A stretch of DNA of 64,000 bases from Candidatus Levyibacteriota bacterium (GCA_963722305.1 CAVRKE010000001.1:437549-501548), one strand, 5' to 3'. Counted from the stretch's first letter, positions 15,843 through 41,312 are shown. The notes: a model not told the origin generated them from the sequence alone. Translations and numbers: made by a program.

Positions 15843-16763
15843 CTATTCTTTCTTTTTGCTCCTTGTCCCAACTTTTGATTTTTGAACTTTGACTTTTGCC
15901 TTAGGTTCTTTTTTATCGACGGGTTTTTGAATTTTTGCTTTTACCTTCGCAGGTTTTTCACCTTCCGGAATTTCAGTCCCCTTCGGGGATTTCGTCTCCT
16001 TCGGAGCTTCGGCTTTCGCCTCAATTTTCGGCAGCTTTTGCTGCTTAACTCCTTCCACCCAGGCATCCATGATGGCCGAAACAATCAATTTAATTGAGCC
16101 AACCGCGTCATCATTGGAAGGAATCGGATGGTCGATTAAATACGGGTCGGCGTTGGTGTCAACCATCGCAACCGTCGGAACACCGACACTTGAAGCTTCT
16201 CTGACCGCCAAATTTTCCAAGTGCGAATCAACAATAAACAGACAATCGGGTTTTTGTTGCATGCCGACAATTCCTTGGTAGAACGAATCCAGCCTTTGTC
16301 TTTCTTTTTCCCATTGCCCGATTTCTTTTTTTGTATACTTGGCTTTTTCTTCCGGATTTCTAAGTTTTTCTTCCAGGTCCGTCAGTTTTTTAAAATTTTT
16401 GGAAACCTCGCCAAAATTGGTTAACACTCCGCCAATCCATCTTTGGGTAATATAAAATAGTTTGCTAACGCTGTTAAATTTATCATCTTTGAGTAATTCT
16501 TTTACTCTAGTGATTTCCTCATCAATAATTGGTTTTGCCTGTCTTTTTGTTCCCACCACCAGCAAACTCTCTCCTCTTTCGCCCAAACGCCTCACGAATT
16601 CAATCGCTTCGTCCAAGCCTTCCTTGGTTTTGGTCAGGTCAATAATCTGGATATTGTCGCGGTTTTCAAAAACAAAATCCCGCGATTTCGGATTTGAGCG
16701 TGTGACCTGATGGCCAAAATGGCAACCGGCCTCAAGAAGTTCTTCAAGTGTAATTTGTTTCAT
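15843..16763 (-). CDS. rpsB: 30S ribosomal protein S2 with a Lys/Pro-rich C-terminal extension
   Basis: MKQITLEELLEAGCHFGHQVTRSNPK... is the canonical S2 N-terminus. The last ~60 aa are KPEAK-rich. Confidence 0.9.
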   Translation of the reverse strand: MKQITLEELLEAGCHFGHQVTRSNPKSRDFVFENRDNIQIIDLTKTKEGLDEAIEFVRRLGERGESLLVVGTKRQAKPIIDEEITRVKELLKDDKFNSVSKLFYITQRWIGGVLTNFGEVSKNFKKLTDLEEKLRNPEEKAKYTKKEIGQWEKERQRLDSFYQGIVGMQQKPDCLFIVDSHLENLAVREASSVGVPTVAMVDTNADPYLIDHPIPSNDDAVGSIKLIVSAIMDAWVEGVKQQKLPKIEAKAEAPKETKSPKGTEIPEGEKPAKVKAKIQKPVDKKEPKAKVKVQKSKVGTRSKKKE

Positions 16764-16904
16764 AAAGTTTTGTGTTCCTTATTCCCTCGGCTCCGCTCGG
16801 GACCTAAGGGACCGCCACCCGGACGAAGCTTTTAAACTCAGGAACATCTGTCCGGATGTGAGTGATTGCCCTATTATATCTAAAGCTGCGAACAGATGCA
16901 AGAC

Positions 16905-17030
16905 TAAATTCCTAATTGCTCTAATTGACCTAATTATTCTAATCAAATCCCAAATCGTTAATCTTTAATCATTTGGCCATTGGTCATTGATTAGAAATTA
17001 AGAATTAGAAATTAGGAATTATCCTTCCTT
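16905..17030. repeat. AT-rich short-period repeat tract at the left edge of the surface-protein island
   Basis: cctaattgctctaattgacctaattattctaatcaaatcccaaatcgttaatctttaatcatttggccattggtcattgattagaaattaagaattagaaattaggaatt. Confidence 0.5.
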
Positions 17031-17084
17031 CCACCCTTGACAATCTTTTCCCAATCTACTACCTTTAGTTCATAAGCTATTATT

Positions 17085-18392
17085 TTGATGAGAAAAACTC
17101 TTCTTAAATTTTTATTGTCTGCCCTCTTTTTACTGGTCGCCTTCTCATTCTTTTCGCAAAAAACAATTGGCAACGGTAGTGGTAGCTCCGCTAGTGATAA
17201 CACTTGTACCGGGACTAATAATGTTTGCAAACAATACTCTGCTACCGGTTACACCGATTGCACTCTAGATGATAATAATGGCACCTCTAGTCAAGGCGCT
17301 TCTTGCGGTGCTTCCGACGAACAAAATGGCATTCGCTGTTACACCTGCACCGGCTGCGGTAAAGCGCCTGTCACCTGTGGCAACGGACAAACAAATGTTA
17401 ACGGAAAATGTGTGCCAAACTGCCCGACAAGTGGCACAAGCCCCACTGCCTATTGTAGTTATGGCACTCCGACTGACCCCCAAGCAAAAGCCTTAACTCA
17501 ATACACCTGCGATTATCAAGCCGGTGGCAGCAGCAGCATGATATGTTATGGCTGCAATACTGGATATAACCTGGTCAATAACGTCTGCACTAAACCGCCT
17601 GTAAATAATCCCACCCCCACTCCTACTTCTAAGCCCACTCCTACATCTACCCCCACTCCCACTTCTATGCCAACCCCTACTGCTAACCCTACTCCCACCC
17701 CAACCCTTACCCCTACTCCAACCGTCACTCCCACGCCGACTCTTACTCCTACCCCGACTCTTACTCCCACTCCCACCATCCCTCCTACACATACAATTTT
17801 AAATCTGACTGTCGGGCTGGACGGAATTGGCCATGTCGGCGACCGGGCCAACCCGGACTGGACTGCAAAATATAATGCCGCCGGCTCCAACCAAAATCCA
17901 CTCACCAATCCGCGGACTTTTACGATTAACGTTAGTGGTACCAACTACACCACCTCACTAAGTTTTGACCAAACCAACGGCGTTTATACGGGCACCGCTG
18001 ATTTAGGTACGGCTTTTACCACCGGCGATTATATTGTTAAGATTTCCACCGACGGGCATTTGGTAAAAGCAGTCACGGGCTCTGTCAGCGGCGGGCTAAT
18101 GCATATTGTCTCCGGAGTTTCTACTAATACCGCTCCCCAAGTCAACTTGGTTACCGGAGATATTACGGGAGACAACAGTACAACCCCCGACAATAAACTT
18201 GATGTTTTAGATTATAATATTCTTATCAGTTGTATTAAGGACCCTGATATCAATGATTTTGATAATCAGGCAACTTGCGACGAAAATGCAAATTATATTA
18301 AACGATCTGATTTGGAAGACAACGGCGTAGTTGATAAATACGATTATAATTTATTTATCCGGGAATATTCGGAAGTACAAAATGGGGATTGA
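17085..18392 (+). CDS. Secreted Cys-rich protein with a Pro-Thr linker and a C-terminal dockerin-like Ca-binding repeat pair
   Basis: Signal peptide; ~150-aa Cys-rich N-domain; a (PTPT)n linker of ~60 aa; C-terminal [27 protein letters not shown] and [21 protein letters not shown] segments resembling two dockerin repeats. Confidence 0.5.
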
Positions 18393-18533
18393 GCGAAGCC
18401 GAGTCTGACTCGGCGAAAGCAAAATTCTGAGCGAACGAAGTGAGTCGAAGAACTGATATAATGATAAAGGATTAATAATGAATGAATTCTTTAATCTGTA
18501 ATCAAAAATCATTAATCAAAAAAGGACTGCCCT

Positions 18534-19175
18534 ATGAAAGACGAAAAAAGTAATTTGAGCGAAGCGGAGTCCAGCTCAGCTGGACAAAAGCAAACCGCCT
18601 GGATGCCGCAAAAAACCCTGATTTTAATTATTGTGCTGGCAATAATCACCGCTGTACTGCTTGTTTTGGCTTTATACACAAAAATCCCTACCAAAAGCGC
18701 TCATATTGTCACTACCAAAACCCCGGTCGTTGTTGTCCATGCTTATACCACTTTGACTATTGCCCAAGCGGTTGCTTCCAATTCTGCCTATGGGCATACT
18801 TATGCAGCCGACATTAATATTTCCACCAAATCGAACAAAGTAACCGCAGTGCAACTGCAAATAGCTTATAACCCAAATAGTGTCACTATTACCGATATCA
18901 CTGCCGGCTCCTTTTTTAACAATCCCGATATACTGTTTGAAAAAATCGACCCGGAAGCCGGAATCATTACCTATTCACTCGGTGTCGGTCTTGGCCAAAA
19001 ACCGGTTAGCGGCAGCGGAACCGTTGCAACCATTAAGTTTATTCCCATATCCGGCCAAAAATCTGTTGTCCTCAGTGTTTTGCCAACCAGCGAAGTTGCC
19101 GCCCAAGGTGAAGTGAAATCCGTCTTAAAATCAGCTTCCAAAGCAACCCTACAACTGGTCTCCCCTACACAGTAG
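18534..19175 (+). CDS. Membrane-anchored protein with a cohesin-like beta-sandwich domain
   Basis: N-terminal TM helix. The domain TLTIAQAV...AVQLQIAYNPNSVTITDITAGSFF...IDPEAGIITYSLGVGLGQKPVSGSGTVATIKF fits a cohesin-like pattern. Sits directly downstream of the dockerin-like gene. Confidence 0.4.
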   Translation: MKDEKSNLSEAESSSAGQKQTAWMPQKTLILIIVLAIITAVLLVLALYTKIPTKSAHIVTTKTPVVVVHAYTTLTIAQAVASNSAYGHTYAADINISTKSNKVTAVQLQIAYNPNSVTITDITAGSFFNNPDILFEKIDPEAGIITYSLGVGLGQKPVSGSGTVATIKFIPISGQKSVVLSVLPTSEVAAQGEVKSVLKSASKATLQLVSPTQ

Positions 19176-19244
19176 ACTGGATTACTTGAAGTTAGAAACT
19201 CTTGATCTTTTTGATTTTGATTATTTGAAGATTTGAAACTTTGA

Positions 19245-19613
19245 TTACTTGAAGTTTTGCCAGTTATTTTTAAGGTTCGAGAGCTTTTTGCCTAATCTAT
19301 TATATCTTTCAATCAATTCGTCAACATATCCCGGCTTTTTGATATAACCTTTGTGTTTCGATAAGAGTAAATGATTAATCATTTCATTGGATTCTCCAAT
19401 GCAATCTCTAATATATCTTTGAAAGTCTTTTATCGATTCTCTTCTTGCATAACCCTCTGCTATTTGTGCAGGTATAGACCTCGAGGCTCTTCTCATCTGA
19501 TCAGACAAAAGGAATTTTTCAGAAGACGGATAGGTCTTAAGAAGTTCTTCTATTTCAAGCGATAATTGAAAAGATTCTTTATAGACTTCAAGATCTAAAA
19601 AACTTGTAATCAC
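19245..19613 (-). CDS. Four-helix-bundle protein (Avd-like / 23S rRNA intervening-sequence protein family)
   Basis: LEVYKESFQLSLEIEELLKTYP...LSDQMRRASRSIPAQIAEGYARRESIKDFQRYIRDCIGESNEMINHL matches the TIGR02436/PF05635 pattern. Confidence 0.7.
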   Translation of the reverse strand: MITSFLDLEVYKESFQLSLEIEELLKTYPSSEKFLLSDQMRRASRSIPAQIAEGYARRESIKDFQRYIRDCIGESNEMINHLLLSKHKGYIKKPGYVDELIERYNRLGKKLSNLKNNWQNFK

Positions 19614-19774
19614 TATTTAATTCTAGCCCTCAAGTTATCAATTTATCAAGTATTCATGTTCAAGAATATCTAATTTCTAACGTCAAAATATCTAGCACAA
19701 GAATCTCACACTTCCAACTTCAAAAACTCCAAAGAAATATTGCATTAATTCAATATTTCTTCTATTATTACTTT

Positions 19775-20482
19775 ATGCCCGAAATCGCTCAACAAGACAT
19801 CGCTTATCAACCTGCAGCCAAGGGATATGCTTTTTCGAACAATTCCCGCACCCCCATCAGTGAACAACCGCCGAGGAAAAAATCCAATCCGTTTTTACTG
19901 CTATTTTTTGAAATCTTGGGGCTTCTGGCAATATTTGCCATATTTTTGGTGATTCTGAATTTCTTCGGCGTCATTTCCCTTTCCGCGATTTATCCAAAAA
20001 GCTTAGGTTTTCTCCCGCACGTAAACCAATCAACCAACACCAGCTCAAAAACGCAAAACAATCCGACTAACACCAGCAACCAGTATTTTAGTCCTGTTAA
20101 TTTTATAAAACTGCAAAATCAAGCTACGGATAGCAAAATGCAGGCATATCTAGCCTACGCTGTCCGTTTTACCAAACCCAGTCAAAGTGTTACTTCCAAC
20201 GACTACACATCTGCCGGAGTTTTTTCCGGCTACGATAGTAAAACTATCCAGGTTGTTACCAAAGATGGCGTTTTAAATTTAAATTTTGACCAAAATACCC
20301 TTTTCCAAAAATACTCTGCACCACCATCAAACGGCACCGGCGTTATCGCACCGTCTTCTTCTTCATCGACAGATTTCTTTAAAAACGTTGCTTTTGGCAG
20401 TGTCATCCAAGTCTTTTATTCCAAAGCTGATTTGAAAGCAACCCAGGTAAACTATAGTGAGTTAACAAAACCCGTCCTTTAG
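19775..20482 (+). CDS. Single-pass membrane protein with C-terminal 'domain X', shared with the 21907..22830 protein
   Basis: TM helix LLLFFEILGLLAIFAIFLVILNFF. The C-terminal ~90 aa (FSGYDSKTIQVVTKDGVLNLNFDQNTLFQKY...VFYSKADLKATQVNYSELTKPVL) are ~65% identical to the C-terminus of 21907..22830. Confidence 0.45.
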   Translation: MPEIAQQDIAYQPAAKGYAFSNNSRTPISEQPPRKKSNPFLLLFFEILGLLAIFAIFLVILNFFGVISLSAIYPKSLGFLPHVNQSTNTSSKTQNNPTNTSNQYFSPVNFIKLQNQATDSKMQAYLAYAVRFTKPSQSVTSNDYTSAGVFSGYDSKTIQVVTKDGVLNLNFDQNTLFQKYSAPPSNGTGVIAPSSSSSTDFFKNVAFGSVIQVFYSKADLKATQVNYSELTKPVL

Positions 20483-20533
20483 CTTGACTTTAAAAACTAA
20501 AGGGAATAGCATTAGCTTAAAGAAAGGGGCAAA

Positions 20534-21910
20534 ATGATAGCAGAGAGATTAACGATGGAAAAGCCAATAGAAAAAACGACGGGACCAGCACCAAGACCTT
20601 TCGGCCCACCCGAGTTAAGAGTTATGCTTGGTAAAGTGCAAGATAAAGGCACGGTGCCGACGGTCCCGGAATTTGGACAAGAAGCATTACAGAAACCAAA
20701 ATCGGATATGCCGGCGCAAACAATCGGAGAACGACCTTCCTGGGGAGGAAGCGCCATACCAACGGCACAAGAGGCAACAGAAGCATTAGATAGTGTTAAA
20801 GAAGGAACCCTCGCGCACAAGAAAGCAAAAGTCACTTTAGAAACTGCGCAGGCGATTAAGAACTCCGAGATTCCTCTGGATCAATTGAACATGGGAGTAT
20901 CTACCCCAGTTAAAGAAACACCAACTAAAACAGACGATGGTCATGACAATACAGGCGGACGACGCGGACAACATCGAGGAAAATTTGCTATCGCTATGGG
21001 AGCATTAGCAGCAGTGACTGTTGCTGCCTGCAACCGCCTTGGCATTACCTGGCCGCTTGGTCAACCTTCTCCGGCTCCATCAGCAACTCCGGCTGCCGAA
21101 GTCAGCCCGGTTGCAACCGAAACGCCCGGGGCATCGGTTGTAGTAACCGAACCGCCTAGCGCTTCTGCATCAGCCTCAGTCGGACCTTCCCAAACCAAAT
21201 CTCCAACTGCAGAGATAACCACCTCTCCCGAACAACAAAGCGCACTAAAGAAAGCTATTAACGAATGGAATAATAAAGGAACCTATGATAGCAAAGAACC
21301 ACAATTATTTCATAACAGTCCTGCAGACAATTCTGTCCTACATTTAGATTGCTTAGCTTCTGAAGCACAAGTTAATACACAAACAGATCCTTTTTACTCA
21401 GGAGTATTTCTAGGTTATGCTATTGTTGATAATCACGCGATTGTTATCATGGGCGAGAAAGATATTAACCAGAATCCTTATGCCATCGCGCTCAATGGCG
21501 GCAATGTTAAAGATCCTGATGTTTATGTAAAGATTGCTAATAATATAGCCTACTTTAGCAATATTAATGGAAAACAAAAAATCAATTTTTACAATTTTCC
21601 TGAAGCCGCAAGTGAATTCGATAAATACATAGGTCAAACCGTTATCTTTAATCCTAATACTCCTTTAGTAGGACAACCACCAGACTCAAGCTGGGATAAT
21701 TATGTAAACGAAATTAAAGCACAACAAGGTATCTCAAATAAGTTAAATCATTTAGCCGCCTTTGCGGGGCACAATGGTTCCTACACCGATGCTCCATATT
21801 ATCAGGAATTATTGTCCGCCGGCGTAATTATATCTGATGCTTCTAAAATAGCGAGTCTTAAATTACCTCTTCCATATCTGGAAGATATCTATACCAAAAC
21901 TGCCTCATGA
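20534..21910 (+). CDS. Hypothetical membrane/surface protein; paralog of 22882..24129
   Basis: Shares with 22882..24129 the N-terminus MI(A/T)ER..., an internal hydrophobic segment (AACNRLGITWPLG vs AGCQFFGISLPIG) and a P/S/A-rich linker. The upstream 50 bp are also conserved. Confidence 0.45.
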   Translation: MIAERLTMEKPIEKTTGPAPRPFGPPELRVMLGKVQDKGTVPTVPEFGQEALQKPKSDMPAQTIGERPSWGGSAIPTAQEATEALDSVKEGTLAHKKAKVTLETAQAIKNSEIPLDQLNMGVSTPVKETPTKTDDGHDNTGGRRGQHRGKFAIAMGALAAVTVAACNRLGITWPLGQPSPAPSATPAAEVSPVATETPGASVVVTEPPSASASASVGPSQTKSPTAEITTSPEQQSALKKAINEWNNKGTYDSKEPQLFHNSPADNSVLHLDCLASEAQVNTQTDPFYSGVFLGYAIVDNHAIVIMGEKDINQNPYAIALNGGNVKDPDVYVKIANNIAYFSNINGKQKINFYNFPEAASEFDKYIGQTVIFNPNTPLVGQPPDSSWDNYVNEIKAQQGISNKLNHLAAFAGHNGSYTDAPYYQELLSAGVIISDASKIASLKLPLPYLEDIYTKTAS

Positions 21911-22830
21911 AATTTAAAAAAATTATTATTGCGGCAATATTAATAGCTATTGGAGCACTTCTCGTAAACAAACCTGTTAACGTTAACGCTGAAGTCTATG
22001 GCGCGTATTACGGCTGTACTGGAACCACCACCAACACTTATAACGCTTGGGCTTGCCAAATATCTTATCCCTACGATCCAACTACGCCATACGCTATATG
22101 CTTAACTAATAATGTAAGCAACAAACTAACCTGTATTCCAGACCCTGATCATGGCACCGGTGATGCTGATACTGTTAATCTCTGTGGAGCATGCGGCACT
22201 ATTGGTAAAACCTGTAGTCCTCAAACACTAAGTCCTGGATCAGATTGCAATATAGCAAACATAACCCAGTTAAACGAACCGCAATGCGGTGGACATATTA
22301 GCGCCGCACAAATCTGGCAAGGCACAGGTTGTGGAGTCACTTGCTCGGGGTACTATTGGTGCAACTCGGATGGACTCGCCTATGATACTCATTATACAGG
22401 TAGCGGAGGAAGTGGCTCATGCACCAATAATGGAGTACGCGACCCGGCCGGAGACTCTCTTTGTGGCGGTGGCGGTCCCGACACCTGCACGGTTAGTTTC
22501 AGCGGCTTGCCTGCGAATCCAACTGCAGGTCAGGCTTATACTATTTCCATATCCGACGCCGTATTTTCCGGCTATGATGCTCATACAATTCAGGTGGTTA
22601 CATCCGATGGTGTTTTAAATTTAAGTTTTGACCAAACTACCCTTTTCCAAAAATACGCAGCGATCAAACAACCGATTACTAACGGACCTGTTGGCCCAAC
22701 TCCTTACGCATCTTCGCAGGATTTTTTCAATAATGTTTCCTTTGGCAGCACTCTTTTAGTATTCTACTCAAAAACAAACCTTACGGTTAGTCAAGCAAGT
22801 TATATTGAATCCATAAAACCTATCCTTTAA
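21907..22830 (+). CDS. Secreted Cys-rich protein with C-terminal 'domain X'
   Basis: Signal peptide; the Cys-rich domain (...GCGVTCSGYYWCNSDGLAYDTHYTGSGGSGSCTNNGVRDPAGDSLCGG) is homologous to the N-terminus of the 24156..27239 protein; C-terminus is paralogous to 19775..20482. Confidence 0.5.
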   Translation: MKFKKIIIAAILIAIGALLVNKPVNVNAEVYGAYYGCTGTTTNTYNAWACQISYPYDPTTPYAICLTNNVSNKLTCIPDPDHGTGDADTVNLCGACGTIGKTCSPQTLSPGSDCNIANITQLNEPQCGGHISAAQIWQGTGCGVTCSGYYWCNSDGLAYDTHYTGSGGSGSCTNNGVRDPAGDSLCGGGGPDTCTVSFSGLPANPTAGQAYTISISDAVFSGYDAHTIQVVTSDGVLNLSFDQTTLFQKYAAIKQPITNGPVGPTPYASSQDFFNNVSFGSTLLVFYSKTNLTVSQASYIESIKPIL

Positions 22831-22881
22831 CTTGACTTTTGAAGCTCAGAGGAATAGCATAAGGCTTGGAAAGGGGCCAAA

Positions 22882-24129
22882 ATGATAACAGAACGTATGG
22901 AGGGACAAGGAGATCAAGTCAAATTACCGACAATAGGAAAACGGCCATTAGAACGGGTAGTAAGGCCCGTAGGCCAAGCAGCCAAAAAAACAAGGGAAGA
23001 TACAACGGCTGCCTGGGCACCTCCAGTTGCTGAAGCGACCGAAAATGTCGCAAATTATCAACCTGGAACTTTAGGGAGACAAAAAGCCGAAAGTACTCTT
23101 GAAATCAGTAGAATCCTTGAGACTACAGGTATTTCTGCAGGAAGACAACATCCAACGGAGAAAGCACCAACTTCTCAAGCAGTAGTCAAAACAGAAGACG
23201 CAGATGCGACGCGACCAAAGGATCGCCAGCGCGGTTTTAGAAGATTTACTAGAACTGCTGGCCTAGTAGCTACGTCTATAATTGTGGCTGGTTGTCAGTT
23301 TTTTGGTATTTCCCTACCAATAGGAAACTCTTCTGCTCCAAGCTCGGAACCATCCGGAGGAATAGTCGAACCAAGCCCAAGCGGCGGAATGCCCAGTGAA
23401 TCAGCGGGAATTAGTGAGCCACCCAGCGCTTCTCCAAATGCCAGTGCTTCCCAACCAGCGTCGCAAAGTCCCGAAGCTTCAGCATCAGCTGAAACCCAAA
23501 AGCAATTGGAACAAGCAGTCAAAGATTGGTTAAACGGAACCACCAAAACCCCAGAACCCCTTACTATTGGAACCAACAAACTTCCCTTTCATATAGGACA
23601 AGCAGCTACATATATCGAGAATACAAAAAATGACCCCGATGGAATGTGCTCTTATACCGTGGACCTACTTGGAGAACAAACTATCAATAATCATTTAGAA
23701 ATTTATGGAGGCATACAAAATGACGATAATGTAAGACATGTATTAATATTTAATCTGGGTAAAATGCAGGAAAAGTTGGAGCTTGAAACATTTGCTTCAA
23801 ACAATCTAAAAGATAATAGTACTTGGGGCTTTTTTCAACTGCCGGATGCAATAACAGTACTTGCTAAATACAACGGAAAGGCTATACAAATATATGCATC
23901 GATAGGACTCTTTGATACAGCTACTTTGCAAAAGCTCGACTATGATGCCGAGATTAACTCCGGAGTGCCAACTACTGCTGCTATTGCTCAATGGCAAGCA
24001 AATACAGCTTGGAAGGGCTCTAAAGAGACCAAACCACCGGCTAATGTCGATATTGATAAGGTACTTACATCCTTTGACATAACAAAACTATCTCAGTCTA
24101 AAAATATAATGCTTCCAGCGTTACAATAA
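22882..24129 (+). CDS. Hypothetical membrane/surface protein; paralog of 20534..21910
   Basis: See 20534..21910. Same domain order; second member of the tandemly duplicated cassette. Confidence 0.45.
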   Translation: MITERMEGQGDQVKLPTIGKRPLERVVRPVGQAAKKTREDTTAAWAPPVAEATENVANYQPGTLGRQKAESTLEISRILETTGISAGRQHPTEKAPTSQAVVKTEDADATRPKDRQRGFRRFTRTAGLVATSIIVAGCQFFGISLPIGNSSAPSSEPSGGIVEPSPSGGMPSESAGISEPPSASPNASASQPASQSPEASASAETQKQLEQAVKDWLNGTTKTPEPLTIGTNKLPFHIGQAATYIENTKNDPDGMCSYTVDLLGEQTINNHLEIYGGIQNDDNVRHVLIFNLGKMQEKLELETFASNNLKDNSTWGFFQLPDAITVLAKYNGKAIQIYASIGLFDTATLQKLDYDAEINSGVPTTAAIAQWQANTAWKGSKETKPPANVDIDKVLTSFDITKLSQSKNIMLPALQ

Positions 24130-24155
24130 ATATTTATTTTGCTATAATAATCTAT

Positions 24156-27100
24156 ATGCCCGATAAATTGTTACTTAGGGTTTTTTTAACAAGCCTCACT
24201 TTTATTTTATTCTCATTTCTAATTAGCTCTCCTGTAAGTGCTACATACCTCTGCACAGGAACAGCTACCAGCTATTGGAATAGTTACGGAGCCTGTAATG
24301 TAGTTAATGGAATTCCAGCATGTCCAGTTCCTCAACGAATAAACGTATCAAAGGCTTGTACTCAAGATTATACAACCGGAACTTGCGGAGCCTGCTTAGT
24401 CACTCCCATTTACCAAAGTTGCAGCGTTACAGACAATAATTGTGGGGTATTTGATACCCATCTTGCTAATGACCCTGAATGCGGTGCAGGCGCTGGCAAT
24501 TTTTGGATTACCAATGGCTGTAGAGTAACTTGTAGCGGATTATATTGGTGCTCAGGAGGTCTTGCCTACACGACGCATCTTACCGGCAGTGGGGCAAGCG
24601 CAGCCTGTACCAGTACCGGAGTACGTGCTCCGGCTGCCGACCATCTTTGCGGCGGAGCTCCCACTCCTACTCCTATTCCAAGTTGCACAGTTACCTGGAG
24701 TAACTTTCCTTCCGGCAATCTTACTCCCAACGCTGTATATTCAGGAGTTAAAATAAATAAAGTGAACGCTAGTCCCACCTGGAGTCAAGTTAGTGTCTAT
24801 AGAGACAATAGCACGGCCCGCGAAACAGGATTAGTAAACGGCTCTCCTTTTACATTTAGTTTTAATTCCGGAGCCGCCGGCTCTCACACTTTTAAATTTT
24901 ACAACCTTGATGCTTCCGGATACAGCAGTGGAACAGGACCGGATGCAAATGCCGTTTTGTGCAACGGCAGCCAAAGCTTTGTAACGGGGCCTGTGAACGG
25001 AGCGTGCTCTTCGCCCGCGACTCACTATACTTGCGCTACGGGCACTTCGGTGAATAATAAAAAAAATGGTACCACTTCTTACACTTGGACATGTAACGGC
25101 TCGGGCGGCGGCACCAATGCAGCCTGCACCGAAGCGATTGTGAACGGCGTCTGCGGCGCAACCCATTATCTTTGCACTGCCGGCACAAGCGCTAATAATG
25201 TCAGCGGGGCCACTTCTTACACCTGGAATTGCAATAGTCCAAATGGCGGCACCAATGCAGCCTGTACCGAAACGAAAACATACAACGCAACTGTCAACGT
25301 TTACGTTGATTATAATGCTAATGGAGTTCAGGATGCAGGCGAACCGTTATATACCGGCAGCGCAACGATTAACTATAGCGGCGGTACATCGACCGGCAGT
25401 CCGCAAACTTTTGCCGGCGGCACAACCACCATTTCCAATATCCTTGGTGGGCAAGATGAAAGTATCACCTTAAGCGGCCTGCCCGCGGGATGGACAATAA
25501 CTACCGCCAAAACCGCTACGGCTGCAGACCCGGGTGACAACAGCACTGTCACTGTCAATTTCGGCATCCAACCGCCGGCTCCAGATTGTGGTAACCCACC
25601 ACAAGGAACACTTACCGCCACTTCCCCAATTTATTTAGGGGGAGGCTCACAGGGAACTTCCAACCTAAACATTACCTGTGCTATACCACCGGGGGCCAGC
25701 GGCAGTCTTAATTATTCTTGGTCGGTAGTTGAAGACCCGTTGGACCCAACTCCACCGTACCCTTTAAGCAATTTCGGAACTATTAATAACGTTAATGCTG
25801 CCGGCACAACCTATACCTCTCCGGCCATCGGCACAACCATGTATCCGTTTACCGTTGATGCGGCCGTCACCGTTTGTAACCCCGGCGCAAACCCGACTCA
25901 AAATCCGACTGAATGCACCAGCAGGACTGCGCCGATTATTGTCAATCCCCTATTCACGGTTTCCGGTTCCGTCTTTGTTGACACCAACAAAAATAAACTC
26001 AAAGACGCGGGGGAAAGTAATTATGACACCCCGACCTTTTCCATTTCACCCAGCCCCGACCCTCTGGCCGGAACAACTATCACTACTCCCGGCGATGGCA
26101 CTTACACGATTAGTAATCTGCCGGCTTTACCTTCCGGTTCATTCTACACGCTCTCCTATACTAATCCTCCAACTGCGCCCAATGAATACACCGTCATTTA
26201 TCCGGTCGGCACTCCCCCGTCTTTTGCAATTAACACAGGTGTAAACTGCAATGCCACCACTTTTAACGGTGGCGTTTGCTCCAGCGGAAATATCAGTAAC
26301 CTTAATTTTGCAGTCACTAATTCGCACCCTTGGATCCAGACAATCGGCGGGGATATTTACGAAGCGGGTGGAATCAGTAATGCAATTATGCCCAGCGCTA
26401 ATGTTCCCAGCCAAAGCGGTGGACCAAGCGGCAAGTTGTCTGTCCCCAGTTCGGCGGTTAATTATGTTCCTGCCGACAACACCATCCACTCTTCCGGAAT
26501 AGTCTACCAGGGCAGTTCAACTACTAATTTCGGCGGAGGACAGGCAAATGCCAATAATTGGTTGGTTGGCGGAGTTTCCTATCCCGAACCGATTCAATTC
26601 TCGCCGCCAAACACGGTCCTAAGCTCTTATAGCCACATCAGCCAATTGGTTAGTGATGCCGGAATTACGCCGACAAATCTCACTCCTTATTGCAGTGGCG
26701 GTTTGAATAACTGCGATTTGCAAGCCGGAATGCCTGCCGGAGTTTATTCAGTTAACATTCCCGCCAATGGGACGTTAACCCTTAAGGCCACCAAAAATCC
26801 TTTCACTAATGGCGCTTACGTCATTTTGGTTTCCGGAGATGCAACCACCAAAGTGAATATCGACAGTAACATCAGTGTCACAAGCGGCAACACTTTACTC
26901 CTGACCAGCCAAACCGATATTCATGTTGACCCGTCGGTCGGAGTAAGTAGCCCCCTTGATTACACTTCAAATATTGAAGGATTTTATTCAAGCGACAAAA
27001 ACTTCATTATTGATCATGACCTATCCAAAACCTGCACACACGAGGATGAAAAACTCAATATCCAGGGCGCCATTGTTGCCAACGCTGCTTTAAACGGTGG

Positions 27101-27239
27101 CAGTTTCCAAATTAACAGGGACATGTGCGCAGACGATACTTCCCCGGTGGTGACGGTTAAATCAAGGCCTGATTTTGTCTTGAATGCTCCGAAGTTTTAT
27201 CTTCAGACCACGGTTGTCCAAAAAGAAGTAGCACCATAA
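24156..27239 (+). CDS. Large (1027 aa) secreted Cys-rich surface/adhesin-like protein with tandem repeats and SdrD-B/Cna-B-like domains
   Basis: Signal peptide; N-terminal Cys-rich domain related to 21907..22830; two tandem ~42-aa repeats (CxxPATHYTCATGTS...TSYTWTCNGSGGGTNAACTE); two segments (TVNVYVDYNANGVQDAGEPLYTG and VSGSVFVDTNKNKLKDAGESNYD) resembling SdrD-B/Cna-B fold repeats. Confidence 0.6.
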   Translation: MPDKLLLRVFLTSLTFILFSFLISSPVSATYLCTGTATSYWNSYGACNVVNGIPACPVPQRINVSKACTQDYTTGTCGACLVTPIYQSCSVTDNNCGVFDTHLANDPECGAGAGNFWITNGCRVTCSGLYWCSGGLAYTTHLTGSGASAACTSTGVRAPAADHLCGGAPTPTPIPSCTVTWSNFPSGNLTPNAVYSGVKINKVNASPTWSQVSVYRDNSTARETGLVNGSPFTFSFNSGAAGSHTFKFYNLDASGYSSGTGPDANAVLCNGSQSFVTGPVNGACSSPATHYTCATGTSVNNKKNGTTSYTWTCNGSGGGTNAACTEAIVNGVCGATHYLCTAGTSANNVSGATSYTWNCNSPNGGTNAACTETKTYNATVNVYVDYNANGVQDAGEPLYTGSATINYSGGTSTGSPQTFAGGTTTISNILGGQDESITLSGLPAGWTITTAKTATAADPGDNSTVTVNFGIQPPAPDCGNPPQGTLTATSPIYLGGGSQGTSNLNITCAIPPGASGSLNYSWSVVEDPLDPTPPYPLSNFGTINNVNAAGTTYTSPAIGTTMYPFTVDAAVTVCNPGANPTQNPTECTSRTAPIIVNPLFTVSGSVFVDTNKNKLKDAGESNYDTPTFSISPSPDPLAGTTITTPGDGTYTISNLPALPSGSFYTLSYTNPPTAPNEYTVIYPVGTPPSFAINTGVNCNATTFNGGVCSSGNISNLNFAVTNSHPWIQTIGGDIYEAGGISNAIMPSANVPSQSGGPSGKLSVPSSAVNYVPADNTIHSSGIVYQGSSTTNFGGGQANANNWLVGGVSYPEPIQFSPPNTVLSSYSHISQLVSDAGITPTNLTPYCSGGLNNCDLQAGMPAGVYSVNIPANGTLTLKATKNPFTNGAYVILVSGDATTKVNIDSNISVTSGNTLLLTSQTDIHVDPSVGVSSPLDYTSNIEGFYSSDKNFIIDHDLSKTCTHEDEKLNIQGAIVANAALNGGSFQINRDMCADDTSPVVTVKSRPDFVLNAPKFYLQTTVVQKEVAP

Positions 27240-27242
27240 ATC

Positions 27243-27359
27243 AAAGAAGATTCCAATTGTTAATCAATTAACAATTCACAATTTTCAATTTAGATTGAAT
27301 TTTACAATGATGCAATGAAACATTTATTGAAAATTGAGAACTGAAAATTGAAAATTAGG
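27243..27359. repeat. AT-rich short-period repeat tract at the right edge of the surface-protein island
   Basis: aagaagattccaattgttaatcaattaacaattcacaattttcaatttagattgaattttacaatgatgcaatgaaacatttattgaaaattgagaactgaaaattgaaaattagg; includes the hairpin AATTGTTAAT-CA-ATTAACAATT. Confidence 0.5.
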
Positions 27360-28694
27360 TTATGGTGTGGGGAATTTGGCGGTTAAGGCCCTGACCTCTT
27401 TGGCAATGGCGAGCAACTGCTTGTTTCTGACCACTTCGCTTCTGAATTTCTGCATGAAAGCGGACCGTTCTTCTTTAGTCGCCGGCAATTGGTAATGTTT
27501 GACTTCTTCAATAACTTCATTCATCCACTTGGCGATTTTGACCATTTCCTTTTCCTTCATGCCCCTGGTGGTGATGGCCGGTGTCCCCAGACGGATTCCC
27601 GACGGATAAAAGGGCGGATTAGTGTCGTTTGGCACACCGTTTTTATTCATGACGATACCTGCTACTTCCAGTGCAAGCGACGCCACTACGCCATTGACGT
27701 TTTTGTTTCTTAAATCGATGAGCAAAAGATGATTATCCGAGCCTCCGCTGACAAGATTAAAACCGTATTTGGTAAGTTCTTGGGCCAGTTTTTGTGAGTT
27801 TTTAATAATTTGGGCCGAATATTTTTTGAAAGCCGGTGTCGCTGCTTCTTTTAGAGCGACGGCGATCGCCGCGGTTTGGTTATCATGCGGTCCGCCTTGG
27901 ATTCCGGGAATGATGGCACTATCGATTTTTTTGCCTAGCTCCGGGTCTTTTTTTAAACCCTTGTTTGTCACCATGATGAGCGCTCCCCTTGGGCCCCTGA
28001 GCGTCTTGTGCGTCGTAGTGGTAACGATGTCGGCGTATGGCACGGGCGAGGGATGGACGCCGGCGGCGATGAGCCCCGCAATATGGGAAACATCCGCTAA
28101 AAGATAACATGGTGAACCTTTAAGTTTTCCGACTCTGTCGGCAATTTCGGCAAATTTTTTAAAGTCGATAATGCGCGGATAGGCGGTATAACCGCAGACA
28201 ATAATGTCCGGTTTTTCTTTGAGCGCCTGCTTTTCAATCGCCGCAAAGTCTAGTCTTCCGTCATCACCTAACGTATAAAGAGTCGACTGCCAGAATTTTC
28301 CGGTGGCCGATTGGGGTTGGCCGTGGGTCAAATGACCGCCGAAAGCCAGCGAAAGTCCCATGATTTTGCCTTTTAGAGGTTCTAACACTGCCACATAAAC
28401 TGCCAAATTCATCGCCGAACCACTAAGCGCCTGGACGTTAACAAACGGCACACCGAATAACTTTTTCGCCCGCTCCTGGGCCAGAATTTCTACTTCGTCG
28501 GCCACCGCATTACCCTGATAATATCGCTTGTGCGGATAGCCTTCGGAATATTTGTTGTTCAGAACCGTTCCTAATGCTTCTAAGACTTCTTTGGAGGCAT
28601 AATTTTCCGAGGCAATCATTTCCAGGACTTCTCTCTGACGCTTTTCTTCCTTTTTAATTAAATTGAAAACGGCAGGGTCCTTGGTCTTAAGCAT
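27360..28694 (-). CDS. glyA: Serine hydroxymethyltransferase
   Basis: PLP-lysine motif TTTTHKTLRGPRGA and the length and overall pattern of SHMT. Confidence 0.9.
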   Translation of the reverse strand: MLKTKDPAVFNLIKKEEKRQREVLEMIASENYASKEVLEALGTVLNNKYSEGYPHKRYYQGNAVADEVEILAQERAKKLFGVPFVNVQALSGSAMNLAVYVAVLEPLKGKIMGLSLAFGGHLTHGQPQSATGKFWQSTLYTLGDDGRLDFAAIEKQALKEKPDIIVCGYTAYPRIIDFKKFAEIADRVGKLKGSPCYLLADVSHIAGLIAAGVHPSPVPYADIVTTTTHKTLRGPRGALIMVTNKGLKKDPELGKKIDSAIIPGIQGGPHDNQTAAIAVALKEAATPAFKKYSAQIIKNSQKLAQELTKYGFNLVSGGSDNHLLLIDLRNKNVNGVVASLALEVAGIVMNKNGVPNDTNPPFYPSGIRLGTPAITTRGMKEKEMVKIAKWMNEVIEEVKHYQLPATKEERSAFMQKFRSEVVRNKQLLAIAKEVRALTAKFPTP

Positions 28695-28784
28695 TGCAAA
28701 CCCATTTTAAAATGAAAATTGTCTTGACGCAAGGGGCAAAATGCGCGATAGAGCATGATATCCTTTAGGATAGACTTGAGTTTT

Positions 28785-29297
28785 TTACTTCTCGAGGTCG
28801 AGGAATTTGAATTTGTAACCTCCGGAGGAGTAGTCTTCTTCGGAAATCACTTTTTTGAAGTTTGAATAGTCCGGGAAAAAAGTGTCGGCGCCGTAGTCCC
28901 CTTCCACAATTGTCAAATACAGCCTGTCAACCAGATTTTTCTCCAGCGCTTCTTTAAAAATTTGCCCGCCGCCGAAAATAATGATGTTGTCCGAGCCGGG
29001 AGCTTTTTTGGCTTTTTCAATTCCCTCTTCCAAAGAATGGACAATGATACACTTGGCTCTTTGCTCTTCGGTTTTGACAAACTCGGAAAACTGGTAATCG
29101 CCGTGCGTGATAATAATGCTGGTATTGCTCGGAATCACGCGGCCGATTGATTCAAAAGTCCGCCTTCCCATTACCAAAGGATGTCCGGAAATAATCTGAT
29201 GCATGCGTTTAAAATCCTCAGGGATGTGAAACAGCAAGTCATTATTCTTTCCGATTCCCCTCTTTGAGTCAAGCGCAACGATAATTGAAACTTTCAT
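28785..29297 (-). CDS. folA: Dihydrofolate reductase
   Basis: MKVSIIVALDSKRGIGKNNDLLFHIPEDFKRMHQIISGHPLVMGRRTFESIG is the DHFR signature. Confidence 0.85.
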   Translation of the reverse strand: MKVSIIVALDSKRGIGKNNDLLFHIPEDFKRMHQIISGHPLVMGRRTFESIGRVIPSNTSIIITHGDYQFSEFVKTEEQRAKCIIVHSLEEGIEKAKKAPGSDNIIIFGGGQIFKEALEKNLVDRLYLTIVEGDYGADTFFPDYSNFKKVISEEDYSSGGYKFKFLDLEK

Positions 29298-29299
29298 AC

Positions 29300-29361
29300 C
29301 TAAATCATTATAGCATTAGTCATTAATTAAAAATTAAGAATTAGAAATTGAAAATTGAAAA
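29300..29361. repeat. AT-rich short-period repeat tract (TTAGAAAT/TGAAAAT)
   Basis: cattaattaaaaattaagaattagaaattgaaaattgaaaattatttt. Confidence 0.45.
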
Positions 29362-30030
29362 TTATTTTGAGTCCCGTTTGAGCCACCTAACGCCAACGTA
29401 GACTAATGGGGTTTCGATGACCGACATAAAACATTTGAGCAGCCAATATGGCAAAATTATGCCGGAAAGAAATGAAAAGTTGGCCGCAAATGACAAATTA
29501 AGAGCATAAAAAGCCAAAGTCATAAATAAAGTTGTGTCGAAGAATTCCGAAAGAAAATTAGAAGCATTGGTCCTTAGCCAAAGCTTACGCTTGCCAAGCC
29601 TTTGTCTGATTTTATAAAAAATGAACACGTCCGAAAGCTCACCAACGGCAAAGGCAATTAGACTGGCGGCGGAGATGCGCGCCGAAAAGGTAAAAATCGC
29701 TTCATATGACTTTTCCAAGGGCATAAATCTGGCCGTGGCCGGAAGCGAAACCGCCAACAGTGAGAACAGGAAAAGGAAAAAAATCATTACCAAGCCCGAC
29801 CTGACCACGCTTTGCGCCTTATCTTTGCCGAAAACTTCGGTAATGACATCGTTAATCGCGTAAACCAACGGCACCAACAGTATTCCGACTCCGGTACTTA
29901 GCTGGAATGAGCCGATGGTTAAAAGAGGAATGGTTTTGCTACCCATTAGCTCCGACAACAGAATGCAGGCAACGTAGAAAGAAACTAGAAAGTCTAATTT
30001 TTGAATCTTAAACACCGTGTGAGTGTACAA
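29362..30030 (-). CDS. Queuosine-precursor transporter-like membrane protein (YhhQ/DUF165 family)
   Basis: Multi-TM protein whose motifs LLVPLVYAINDVITEVFGKDKAQSVV and LPYWLLKCFMSVIETPLVYVGVRWLK resemble the YhhQ family. Confidence 0.5.
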   Translation of the reverse strand: MYTHTVFKIQKLDFLVSFYVACILLSELMGSKTIPLLTIGSFQLSTGVGILLVPLVYAINDVITEVFGKDKAQSVVRSGLVMIFFLFLFSLLAVSLPATARFMPLEKSYEAIFTFSARISAASLIAFAVGELSDVFIFYKIRQRLGKRKLWLRTNASNFLSEFFDTTLFMTLAFYALNLSFAANFSFLSGIILPYWLLKCFMSVIETPLVYVGVRWLKRDSK

Positions 30031-30243
30031 AATGAACTTTCATTTTGTCAAGGATTAACTTTGGCACTTATCACCGCAAAACATGTACAAAGGCTAAGTC
30101 TTAAACTCATACTTGATATCAAGGGATAGGTGCGTTAACTTTAAAAGAATATAGAAACTAATCCCCCAACCACACAGCACTTAAGATTAAGTTATCTAGG
30201 TATCTAATGTTTAACGCTCAGCTTCCCCATATTATCATCCCCT

Positions 30244-38392: not shown

Positions 38393-39280
38393 ATTGGATA
38401 ATTTCTAGAGCCTATTATAGCAGGAATTGGTTTTGAAGACGACTTTGCCACCAAAAATACGTTCGGCTACGCTCAGTATTTTTGTGGTGAGCGGAGTCGA
38501 ATCCACCAAAAAACCACCCTTCGGCTTCGCTCAGGACCTCGCTTGCGCTCGACCCCGTGTGCCTTGAGATGGTTTAAAAATGAAAAGTAACTAGAGGGTG
38601 CTGAATAGCGCCCTCCAACCAAAAAGTGGTAGGAAACCCCTCCTCCGCTAAAGCTTCGGAAGGGCAAGTGAATAAGTGAGATTTACAAGAGTTATTCTCT
38701 CTTGGTGTTACGAGTTAATTGGTATTGAAAACTAAAAGTGTGAACCTTTAATCTTTTGCCAACTTCGCCGTTCATCCCCTATTCCTACTCTGTAAATTGG
38801 GACGCGCCCAATTTAATTTTAGAAAGGAGGTGATCCATCCCCACCTTCGGGTAGGGATACCTTGTTACGACTTAAGCCTTATCGCCGATTTTTATCTCTA
38901 TCGCAAAAAGCAATATTCGATAACTACCGACTTTACTGCCTTGACGGGCGGTGTGTACAAGACCCGAGAACGTATTCACCGCAGCATGCTGATCTGCGAT
39001 TACTACCGATTCCGACTTCATGAGGTCAGGTTGCAGACCTCAATCTGAACTGAGGCGAAATTTAAGGGATTGGCTTGCCGTTGCCGGCTTGCAACCCGTT
39101 GTTTTTCGCCATTGTAGTGTGTGTGTAGCCCAGGGTATAAGGGCCGTGCTGACTTGACGTCTTCCGCTCCTTCCTTCCCAATAAAATTGGGACCGTCTCC
39201 AATGAATATTCAACATTGGACGCGGGTTGCGCTCGTTTCCCCACTTAAGGGAACACCTCACGGCACGAGCTGACGACCAT

Positions 39281-40061
39281 ATTCTTCCATGTATTTCTAC
39301 AGGTATGGACTATACCTTCTTCCTTTCTTTAAGGAAGCCAACCGTCTGAATATCTAATTAGACATTCTCACCTTACCTTAATAAGGATCAGTCTCTACGG
39401 GGCAAGTTTTACAGAATAAAGCTTTACTCTTGGTAAAACCTCATCTCTAAAATGCTTTTTCAGATAAAGAACATAAGTTCTTGCAACGGTATATTGGTAC
39501 AAACTCATATTGGCTTTGCCAAACATTAATTGATCTCTTAAAGCATCTTCTTTGCTTGAATAAGCAATTCTAATGCCTGATCTATGCTTGGTATCTATAT
39601 GTCCATCTCCATCAATTCTACCTGCTAAATAAGCAAGTTGATATTTTAAGGGAATGGACAATTCTCCAGTTTTTGTAGACATAAATAAACGTGTCAAAAT
39701 CCTATTATTAATATAAATTTGAACGGCTGTTTGTTTACGCTTACTTTTTCCATCTGGCTGATAAATCCTTTTCTTTATTGGATAGTCTAATTTTACTCTT
39801 AAAAGAAATTTGTTGAATTTATCAATCAGTTTTAGATTAACTGAAGTAAGTCCAATTGAACTTGATCGCCAATAACCATCTGCTAACCAAAGACCTAAAA
39901 TGTAAAAGTCTTCGGCTGATTTAAAAGCAAACTTGCTTCCCACGGTATTACCCATTAATAATATAATACTACATTATTAGCTAGGGCTTCACCGTTTTGG
40001 GTTGGTTATTTCTCCCAGATATTACTACCTGAGCGGCCATCTTCCCGATTAATTCGGGACT
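39281..40061 (-). other. Intervening sequence (intron-like insertion) in 16S rRNA at about E. coli position 1055-1060; encodes a LAGLIDADG endonuclease
   Basis: Exon sequence ...ACAGGTGCTGCATGG (+ strand 40064..40078) resumes as GTCGTCAGCTCGTG... at + strand ~39276. The intervening ~780 bp contain ORF 39395..39955. Confidence 0.6.
39395..39955 (-). CDS. LAGLIDADG homing endonuclease encoded inside the 16S rRNA insertion
   Basis: Two LAGLIDADG motifs: FYILGLWLADGYW and LAYLAGRIDGDGHI. Same strand as the rRNA. Confidence 0.8.
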   Translation of the reverse strand: MGNTVGSKFAFKSAEDFYILGLWLADGYWRSSSIGLTSVNLKLIDKFNKFLLRVKLDYPIKKRIYQPDGKSKRKQTAVQIYINNRILTRLFMSTKTGELSIPLKYQLAYLAGRIDGDGHIDTKHRSGIRIAYSSKEDALRDQLMFGKANMSLYQYTVARTYVLYLKKHFRDEVLPRVKLYSVKLAP

Positions 40062-40187
40062 AGCCATGCAGCACCTGTGCAATCATCCTTACGGATTTGC
40101 TAATCTTTCAAAAAGCATAAACGATTGCATGTCAAACCCTGGTGAGGTTCTTCGTTTTGTCTCGAATTGAACCACACGCTCCACCGG

Positions 40188-40247
<60 letters not shown>

Positions 40248-41024
40248 CCTGCTTAACGTGTTAACTTGCGCCTCATCCTCCGAGGGAGGAGAAAGCTAGC
40301 AGGCATTGTTTACGGCTAGGACTACACAGGTATCTAATCTGTTTCGCTACCCTAGCTTTCGTGCCTCAGCGTCAGGAATATTCCAGATGCTTGCCTTCGC
40401 CTTTGGTGTTCCAGTTAATATCAACGCATTTCACTGCTACACTAACTGTTCCAGCATCCCTAACAATCCTCAATCCCGATAGTTTCTTTCCCAGTTCCGA
40501 AGGTAAGCTTCGGTATTTAAGAAAAGACATATCGGGACGCCTACGCACACTTTACGCCCAATGAATCCGGATAACGCTTGCCTCCTACGTATTACCGAGA
40601 CTTCTGGCACGTAGTTAGTAGAGGCTTATTCTATAGTCCGTGAAGGGACTATCAAAAGGAGTTTACAACCCTAAGGCTGTCTTCCTCCACGCGGCGTCGC
40701 TGGGTCAGGCTTTCGCCCATTGCCCAATATTCCTAGTTGCTGCCATCCGTAGATGTACTGCCCGTGTCTCAGTGCAGTTGTGGCTGATCGACCTCTCAGT
40801 CCAGCTACCCGTCATCGCCTTGGTGGGCTTTTACCCCGCCAACAAGCTGATAGGACGCAGGCTCATCTCTTGGCGCAAAGTTAATTGCTTTACAATAAAT
40901 TGATTATGGACTATTACCCACTCTTTCGAGAGGCTATGGTCCACCTAGAGGTAGATTCCTACGCGTTACTCACCCGTCTGCCAGTTACTTGTCTTGCGAC
41001 AAATCCCTTTGACTTGCATGCTTA

Positions 41025-41067
<43 letters not shown>

Positions 41068-41312
41068 AAAAAAAATTGATGTTAGATTTTCTTTTAGGAA
41101 TTAATCTAACAAAAAATTCCTACCACTTTTTGGTTGAGAAACTTGTTTCGAAACCAACCCTCCAGCAATCGCTCCGTGAGCCGCAGTAGAAATCTACTAA
41201 GGCGAACGGTAAGATGCGGACGGGTTGATTAAAACAGCTTCTAATTACAAAAAGCTCCTTCTCATTCTGTGCTGTATGTGATAACGAATTTTTAAAGTGC
41301 GATTGGCTATTA

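Follow-up and report, generated by a model that had tools for sequence, protein, structure and literature searches.

A 64,000-nucleotide (nt) stretch of DNA from an uncultured Patescibacteria (candidate phyla radiation, CPR) bacterium, hereafter the window, carries a fast-evolving island of cell-envelope genes between rpsB-tsf-frr and glyA. Two gene pairs, A1-B1 and A2-B2, stand there in tandem and are followed by a long gene, C. The A proteins end in a common domain that we call X, the B proteins form a family of their own and A2 carries, in front of X, a cysteine-rich head akin to that of C (Table 1). We describe the parts of this array and propose that it probably goes back to an old tandem segmental duplication, of which A2 would be the junction gene.

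Gene content of the two cassettes

The four open reading frames (ORFs) of the two pairs lie exactly where the original prediction had placed them, and its central proposal, a tandem duplication of a two-gene unit encoding predicted envelope proteins, is borne out by comparison of the copies. As had been claimed, domain X is shared between A1 and A2 (59% amino acid identity, E=2e-29) and the second genes are paralogous, B1 and B2 being distant paralogs with 26% identity over 345 residues (E=4e-24). When the two halves were compared by blastn, the sole significant match paired 20206-20544 with 22548-22892 (69% over 350 nt, E=5e-32); it spans X, the 51-nt spacer between A and B and the first 11 nt of B, and the spacing of the repeat is 2342 nt. 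Restriction of the similarity to low-complexity proline-threonine and proline-serine (PT/PS) linkers, which was looked at by the same comparison, does not describe the match, since these linkers score nothing. The reported conservation of the spacers also stands (36 of 51 positions identical, inside the blastn match), whereas the DNA identity of about 80% ascribed to the shared domain holds for the first 114 nt of X only and drops to 66% over X as a whole. In six-frame hidden Markov model (HMM) and BLAST scans of the 64 kb, the X domain, the B domain and the Cys-rich head each came up exactly twice, and no repeats besides X and the spacer were seen in the region.

A1 consists of a short basic N-terminal tail, a transmembrane (TM) helix (residues 39-63), an N/S/T-rich stalk and an ectodomain of about 130 amino acids (aa). 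An AlphaFold2 (AF2) model gives this ectodomain (residues 108-235) one helix and a six- to seven-strand beta structure at a predicted local distance difference test score (pLDDT) of about 85-90; as modelled, A is a membrane-anchored N-in protein that exposes nothing but a small, beta-rich domain borne on a flexible stalk. The shared domain of about 90 aa first described is present in both copies as X, but it is shorter than the conserved ectodomain of A, of which A2 keeps only the C-terminal beta-barrel part. Within the close A family 27 residues are invariant, many of them polar (SGYD, IQVV, NL, FD, TLFQK), and some of these vary in the more distant ortholog of contig L019 (related contigs and homologous proteins are given below by L- and P-numbers, respectively). 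Profile-profile comparison of A with B revealed no relation between the two families.

The B proteins resemble bacterial lipoproteins. Their homologs have a basic n-region, an h-region and a lipobox whose Cys is invariant in eight of eight aligned sequences, followed by an S/T/P/A-rich stalk of 39-65 residues and a C-terminal globular domain (C-domain). The lipobox reads VAAC in B1 (Cys166, nt 21029-21031) and VAGC in B2 (Cys138, nt 23293-23295); VSGC and LAAC also occur in the family, and the motif is slightly off-consensus in L004 (AAGC) and P0017 (LQGC). In front of the hydrophobic segment B1 carries a charged N-terminal extension of 165 aa and B2 one of 137 aa. The lipobox Cys is preceded by 21-32 aa in P0014 and P0017, by 49-62 in the island orthologs and by 137-196 in B1, B2 and the L009 homolog, whose residues before the signal segment are charged and probably disordered (B1 20534-21031, B2 22882-23292, L009 6424-7011). 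The ENMGE(S/I)(T/S)P of the orthologs' start region has its aligned counterpart inside B1, from residue about 117 (LNMGVSTPV). For the three long proteins, either signal peptidase II cleavage or a type II membrane topology is possible from the sequence.

To define the B family, an exhaustive HMM search of 1.84 billion representatives was used and yielded 45 B-domain clusters; a word-indexed homolog search of B1 had matched only B1 itself, the low-complexity linkers having flooded the candidates. In an AF2 model of B2 residues 195-415 (46-sequence alignment; pLDDT 94.5, predicted TM-score 0.91) the B domain is an alpha/beta domain of roughly 220 aa. The only invariant residues of the family are glycines, none being polar, and 45 of 46 members have no Pfam domain, which together favour a binding or structural role for B over an enzymatic one. 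No invariant catalytic-type residue set was found in the A or the B family. The remaining member of the 46 also has a Peptidase_M23 domain (E=1.6e-7), which may point to a cell-wall context. The B family is not confined to the A-B-C island: in L013 (873-2728) two B2-clade lipoprotein paralogs, P0014 and P0017, follow rplL immediately, one behind the other, and no A gene accompanies them.

Foldseek searches of the A1 model against PDB returned only weak matches of oligonucleotide/oligosaccharide-binding (OB) type, and those of the B2 model against PDB and BFVD no significant match. OB-fold and other small beta-barrel domains (Mpa, RMI, SNase, Csp, the LysRS N-domain, the AB5 B subunit and a YgiW-like lipoprotein) are the best neighbours of the A ectodomain and the B core, all at E>=0.004 and with query-normalised TM-scores <=0.28, which is short of a membership-level match. 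Pfam, NCBIfam and PADLOC yielded nothing usable for A1, B1, A2, B2 or C (no Pfam match for A or B, and PADLOC 0), PHROGs matched once, within a low-complexity linker (E=4e-4), and PDB sequence searches with the family profiles gave no match.

The product of C has a single hydrophobic segment, at its N terminus. Its body (residues 313-1027) is conserved, with 31-37% identity to orthologs, and its head is variable; a match to Pfam SdrD_B (E=6.5e-6) stays below threshold, at 26.8 bits against a gathering score of 29.7.

Both A-B spacers are predicted sigma-70-type promoters of B. A promoter scan found TTGACT-N17-TAGCAT in each, followed by a purine-rich Shine-Dalgarno sequence and the ATG. The same element lies upstream of B in L001, L004, L005, L007, L009, L011 and L012; it begins 1-2 nt past the stop codon of A where A and B are uninterrupted, and it stays directly upstream of B where inserted genes part the two. 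As the element stays just ahead of B in all relatives, even across insertions, it appears to be B's own promoter, conserved by function. The start codon of A2 overlaps the stop codon of B1 (ATGA), so that A2 is probably translated from the B1 transcript, and a promoter-like site for C lies at 24120-24148. The conserved promoter of B, its lipoprotein-type signal and the chimeric make-up of A2 are features that the original prediction had missed.

Table 1. Genes, domains and regulatory elements of the island in the window
Feature	Position (nt)	Strand	Basis and relatives
Secreted Cys-rich protein with PT-repeat linker and dockerin-like C-terminus	17085..18392	+	ORF; ortholog with the same C-terminus in L011
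Membrane-anchored cohesin-domain protein	18534..19175	+	Pfam Cohesin E=7.6e-9, above cut-off; upstream of A in all relatives
23S rRNA intervening-sequence protein family gene (four-helix bundle)	19245..19613	-	Pfam 23S_rRNA_IVP E=2.7e-27
A1 (235 aa)	19775..20482	+	ORF; orthologs P0002-P0009 have the same architecture
X of A1 (residues 146-235)	20210..20479	+	match to X of A2
Proposed duplication unit, copy 1 (X - B promoter - B - Cys-rich head)	20210..22551	+	2342-nt spacing, segment-by-segment paralogy
B1 promoter and Shine-Dalgarno (predicted)	20483..20533	+	-35 TTGACT 20484-20489, 17-nt gap, -10 TAGCAT 20507-20512, AAGGGG before ATG
B1 (458 aa)	20534..21910	+	ORF; nearest C-domain relatives P0019, P0020
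B1 C-terminal globular domain (residues 231-458)	21224..21907	+	
A2 (307 aa), probable junction chimera	21907..22830	+	ORF; matches to the head of C and X of A1
A2 head: signal peptide and 15 Cys (residues 1 to about 207)			paralog of C residues 1 to about 186, E=5e-26
X of A2 (residues 216-307)	22552..22827	+	match to X of A1
Proposed duplication unit, copy 2 (X - B promoter - B - Cys-rich head)	22552..24731	+	ends at the AVYSG motif in C
B2 promoter and Shine-Dalgarno (predicted)	22831..22881	+	-35 TTGACT 22832-22837, -10 TAGCAT 22855-22860
B2 (415 aa)	22882..24129	+	ORF; nearest relatives P0014, P0017
B2 C-terminal domain (residues 200-415)	23479..24126	+	
C (1027 aa), secreted protein	24156..27239	+	Cys-rich head, residues 1 to about 190 (nt 24156-24725), is the proposed source of the A2 head

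The A2 junction and the age of the copies

The N-terminal parts of A1 and A2 do differ as first described, with a TM anchor in one and a secreted Cys-rich domain in the other. The Cys-rich part, though, is no free novelty: it is a paralog of the N terminus of C, and the two heads have 15 cysteines each. The A2 head matches the window's own C at 1e-24 and orthologous C proteins at 1e-8 or worse, over a short motif only, and no other protein joining a head to X was found among 5.8 billion clusters. The passage from head to X falls between residues about 208 and 216 ('...PANPTAGQAYTISISDAVFSGYD'), where both parents, A and C, have the motif (D/N)AV(F/Y)SG. The motif shared at this point is a plausible microhomology, and the precise crossover point within it would have to be placed by inference. 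On the A side, the breakpoint drops the N-terminal helix of the ectodomain and retains the entire beta-barrel part.

Each of X, B promoter, B and head is paralogous between the copies, in the same order and orientation, which gives the layout A(N) - [X - promoter - B1 - head] - [X - promoter - B2 - head] - C(rest). With one breakpoint in A and the other in C, this is the arrangement that a tandem segmental duplication would give. The original prediction had also suggested a survey of related genomes for variation in copy number. A single A-B-C set was present in every relative examined: one A, one B and one C occupy the orthologous site wherever the A-to-C stretch is readable (L001/2, L004/5, L007, L009, L011, L017 and L019), and single copies are also listed across L001/2/3, L004/5/6, L007/8, L009/10, L011, L017 and the more distant L019.

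Several measures speak to the age of the copies, and they contradict the claim that the duplication was recent. Synonymous differences are saturated, their proportion (pS) reaching 0.70-0.77 in B, 0.72 in the head and 0.96 in the second half of X. The first half alone departs from this, at 79% nt identity and a pS of 0.47 between A1 and A2. The same half is as well conserved between A1 and its L001 ortholog (83% nt identity, pS 0.48), which points to constraint on a very conserved motif and not to recency or gene conversion; gene conversion was rejected as the cause of this conservation, orthologs being equally conserved there. X of A1 stands no nearer to X of A2 than to the orthologs of other genomes. 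A diversity-generating retroelement or silent-cassette mechanism was also considered and rejected, given the lack of repeats beyond X and the spacer and the presence of a promoter on both B copies. X has been under purifying selection, with a dN of 0.25 at saturated dS, and A2 retains all 27 family-invariant residues. In a neighbour-joining tree of the B clusters, B2 groups with P0014 and P0017 (E=9e-54 to P0014) and B1 with P0019, P0020 and others (E=8e-25 to P0019), their C-domains falling in different deep clades and standing apart in 200 of 200 bootstraps. The B2 C-domain is 36-40% identical to those of P0014 and P0017 and 22% identical to that of B1. On the other side, the long N-terminal extensions of B1 and B2 show a specific kinship (E=3e-6 to 2e-10) in which P0014 has no part.

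Exchange of B C-domains is visible elsewhere in the family. L017 has an A gene, a spacer and a 5' part of B (signal and stalk) whose DNA is 80-91% identical to L001 and L007, and a B C-domain whose DNA matches only L004, at 69-75%; in P0019, from L012, the N-terminal region is 66% identical to the B protein of L011 and the C-domain 24% identical and of the B1 clade. These mosaics indicate that B C-domains have been exchanged between lineages, with breakpoints near the stalk, and the earlier description of the module as diversifying fits the hypervariability of B. The A-B spacer itself is apparently a hotspot of insertion. In L001 (6419-7308), L007 (3260-4152) and L008 it is occupied by an element of IS200/IS605 type (Y1_Tnp, E=1.7e-10) that has hairpin ends (AGCTTCGCAAGGCCAGGCCTTGCGAAGCT) and is inserted exactly between the stop codon of A and the promoter of B, and a partial copy of the -35 region is retained at the left end of the insertion. 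In L011 (10580-11244) the same spacer has taken up a RelB-type antitoxin gene (E=8.5e-6) together with about 317 nt.

Proposed origin and function, and competing explanations

We propose that an ancestral island of dockerin-like secreted protein, membrane cohesin, A, B and C would have undergone an unequal crossover that linked a point in A immediately ahead of the X beta-barrel with one in C immediately behind the Cys-rich head, and would thereby have gained a tandem copy of [X - promoter - B - head]. The products would be A1-B1, the junction gene A2 with the signal peptide and head of C fused to X, then B2 and an intact C. Both X copies would afterwards have been kept under purifying selection and the B copies would have come to hold C-domains of different clades, a difference for which inter-lineage swapping of these domains may account. 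We regard this evolutionary account, an old tandem segmental duplication with A2 as its junction, as probable, and the duplication itself is an ordinary evolutionary event. It resembles unequal crossing-over of the anti-Lepore type, which gives a junction fusion gene: a multi-gene unit is directly repeated, the junction gene takes its 5' part from the downstream gene and its 3' part from the upstream one, the genes on either side are intact and relatives are single-copy. The case differs in that the crossover would have taken place between non-homologous genes at a short shared motif, and in that the copies are ancient and remodelled.

For the products, we suggest that A, B and C would make up a surface assembly tethered to the membrane and plausibly serving attachment to a host or substrate. 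In it X would be an autonomous docking module, and its partner would be some conserved component of the envelope (a second X, a conserved part of B, or C). X sits on a TM stalk in A1; on A2 it would hold an extra Cys-rich adhesin-type head at the surface, and the exchangeable C-domains of B would supply variable surface specificity. The idea of docking fits these observations: A, B and C are all exported or tethered, their order is kept as far as L019, C, unlike A and B, has no anchor of its own, and X has long been under purifying selection in two contexts. On this evidence a docking function for X is a tentative suggestion, possible but doubtful. The duplication origin and the surface assembly with X docking, taken as one statement in the present wording, we favour to a moderate degree.

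Several findings weigh against this combined statement. The link between the two halves of the array rests on a 608-kb contig of a metagenome-assembled genome (MAG), which is the same sequence as the window and no independent check. The junction microhomology now amounts to only 13 of 18 nt, for which reason the crossover point can only be inferred. The C-domains of B1 and B2 are each nearer to proteins of other genomes than to each other, so that a simple in-situ duplication needs either great age together with loss in all sampled relatives or a later replacement of the C-domain. The tree of X puts A2 outside the clade of A1, L004 and L001, which fits a duplication that predates those lineages as well as a faster rate of change in A2, 90 residues being too few to decide between them. 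B occurs without A elsewhere (L013, after rplL), and X is far more conserved than the B C-domain, which argues against recognition of the variable part of B by X. As judged from these sequence comparisons, the simplest reconciliation would be that the unit was duplicated in situ long ago and that the B C-domains were remodelled afterwards.

Among the alternatives, the one with the most to be said for it holds that head, X and B2 were acquired by horizontal transfer or recombination and placed beside a resident A1-B1 pair, A2 having been shuffled elsewhere. Such an origin would accord with the kinship of the B2 C-domain to P0014 and P0017, with the branching of the A2 X outside the A1 clade and with a locus that demonstrably recombines between lineages and takes insertions (IS200, RelB). 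Yet the A2 head, with its signal peptide, matches over its full length only the neighbouring C of the same genome, which is also its best match; a head-X gene was found in no other genome; the three paralogous segments follow one another exactly as a tandem duplication would leave them; B1 and B2 have N-terminal extensions with a specific kinship; and P0014 and P0017 lie in a different context without A. We therefore think acquisition unlikely, although it deserves more weight than the other rivals. A recent in-situ duplication followed by rapid diversifying selection on B would explain the tandem order and shared orientation, the conserved spacers, the initial 114 nt of X with their 80% DNA identity, and the long N-terminal extension that B1 and B2 share and that is not seen in their nearest C-domain relatives. 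It is very improbable in view of the saturated synonymous sites in the second half of X, B and the head, of a conserved X stretch equally so between A1 and the orthologs of other genomes, of B C-domains in different deep clades (100% bootstrap) and of a spacer kept in all relatives as a promoter.

That no cell has both cassettes, and that two strain haplotypes were concatenated in the MAG, is an explanation suggested by the metagenomic origin of the contig and by a break in an independent k=31 assembly. In the Logan assembly of run ERR11594402 two contigs, covering 16726-22579 and 22550-30129, are 100% identical to the window and overlap by 30 nt (k-1) at 22550-22579, inside A2, which marks a graph branch; the branch could stem from a co-occurring relative or from structural polymorphism of the duplication in the population. 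The first of these contigs nonetheless holds A1, B1 and the Cys-rich head in frame with the first nine codons of the second X, and the join of head and X on it shows that the chimera is present on real reads. The overlap of the contigs is exactly k-1. The branch 30-mer, which encodes the family-consensus motif SDAVFSGYD, occurs once in the window, and no exact match between the copies exceeds 19 nt; they are thus too diverged for a collapse or mis-join through shared k-mers. We consider an artefact improbable, if slightly less so than a recent duplication. Least probable of all is a conflict module (toxin and immunity, polymorphic toxin or anti-phage defence), which the tandem two-gene units, variable C-terminal domains and nearby mobile-element insertions superficially recall. 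Neither PADLOC, Pfam nor NCBIfam matched and PHROGs reached only the low-complexity linker; conserved catalytic residues are lacking, both partners carry export or anchor signals, and the place of the locus between housekeeping genes is fixed in all relatives.

Known systems and genomic surroundings

Patescibacteria are ultra-small, mostly episymbiotic bacteria, and we know of little that has been established about their attachment machinery. The island described here is a conserved surface locus that keeps one fixed place in the chromosome and includes two uncharacterised protein families, and the signs of modular evolution comprise the A2 junction chimera, the lineage-swapped B C-domains and the conserved internal promoter. 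These families and the modular behaviour of the locus are what is new here. Going further, one may speculate that A, B and C are a previously unrecognised modular surface-display system of Patescibacteria, parallel to the adjacent cohesin-dockerin pair, with X as a new docking domain; we think this unlikely on present evidence. Were it true, A2 would show that X by itself suffices to hold cargo at the cell surface, and the swappable B C-domains would give strain-specific surface or host specificity. In any case A2 is a source of hypotheses on what X binds.

Cohesin-dockerin display of the cellulosome type offers a close parallel, since the island has a membrane cohesin and a secreted Cys-rich protein with a dockerin-like C-terminus, and the logic proposed for X, a small C-terminal module that ties a secreted head to a membrane-tethered partner, is alike. 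X and B, however, have no sequence or fold similarity to cohesin (PF00963) or dockerin (PF00404), and a literature search on Patescibacteria with cohesin and dockerin turned up nothing relevant. B shares with bacterial lipoproteins, the substrates of Lgt and LspA, the n-region, h-region, lipobox, invariant Cys, flexible stalk and globular domain. It differs in the 137-196 residues before the signal in B1, B2 and the L009 homolog, which is very unusual against a typical signal of <35 aa, and in a globular domain without Pfam or PDB relative; lipidation of B is a prediction. Tandem paralogous lipoprotein clusters are exemplified by the lpl cluster of Staphylococcus aureus, and the tandem paralogs B1/B2 here and P0014/P0017 in L013 are alike in this respect. 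C recalls Gram-positive adhesins of the SdrD/CNA-B type in being long and secreted, with weak SdrD B-like repeats and a variable N-terminal head, but it has no LPXTG or other wall anchor and its Pfam match is below the gathering score.

In related contigs the island keeps the order of a Cys-rich secreted protein with a dockerin-like end, a membrane cohesin, sometimes a 23S-rRNA-IVP gene, and A, B and C. The flanks are an M50 protease, ribosome recycling factor (RRF), EF-Ts and ribosomal protein S2 on one side and serine hydroxymethyltransferase (SHMT), dihydrofolate reductase and ThyA on the other; the A-B-C stretch of relatives sits between S2/EF-Ts/RRF and SHMT wherever a contig reaches that far. 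Identity between genomes is 75-88% for S2, EF-Ts and RRF, 43-46% for the cohesin protein, about 55% for A and about 20-25% for B, from which it follows that the island evolves much faster than the surrounding genome. Pattern scans for A added only one new locus from GTDB genomes and two from JGI metagenomes. The 23S_rRNA_IVP gene is a passenger between cohesin and A that also occurs in L004, L006 and L009. The dockerin-like end of the first protein is sub-threshold against Pfam Dockerin_1 (E=0.28), and its (PTPT/S)n linker is encoded by a long imperfect repeat with an 18-nt period (17594-17795), a short related stretch of which is found in C (24659-24729).

Outside the island, the 16S rRNA gene of the window (38823-41073, minus strand) measures 2251 nt against the 1533-nt Rfam model and so contains an insertion of about 720 nt, of a sort typical of CPR bacteria. 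An ORF inside it (39395-39955, minus strand) encodes a LAGLIDADG homing endonuclease (Pfam E=9e-14).

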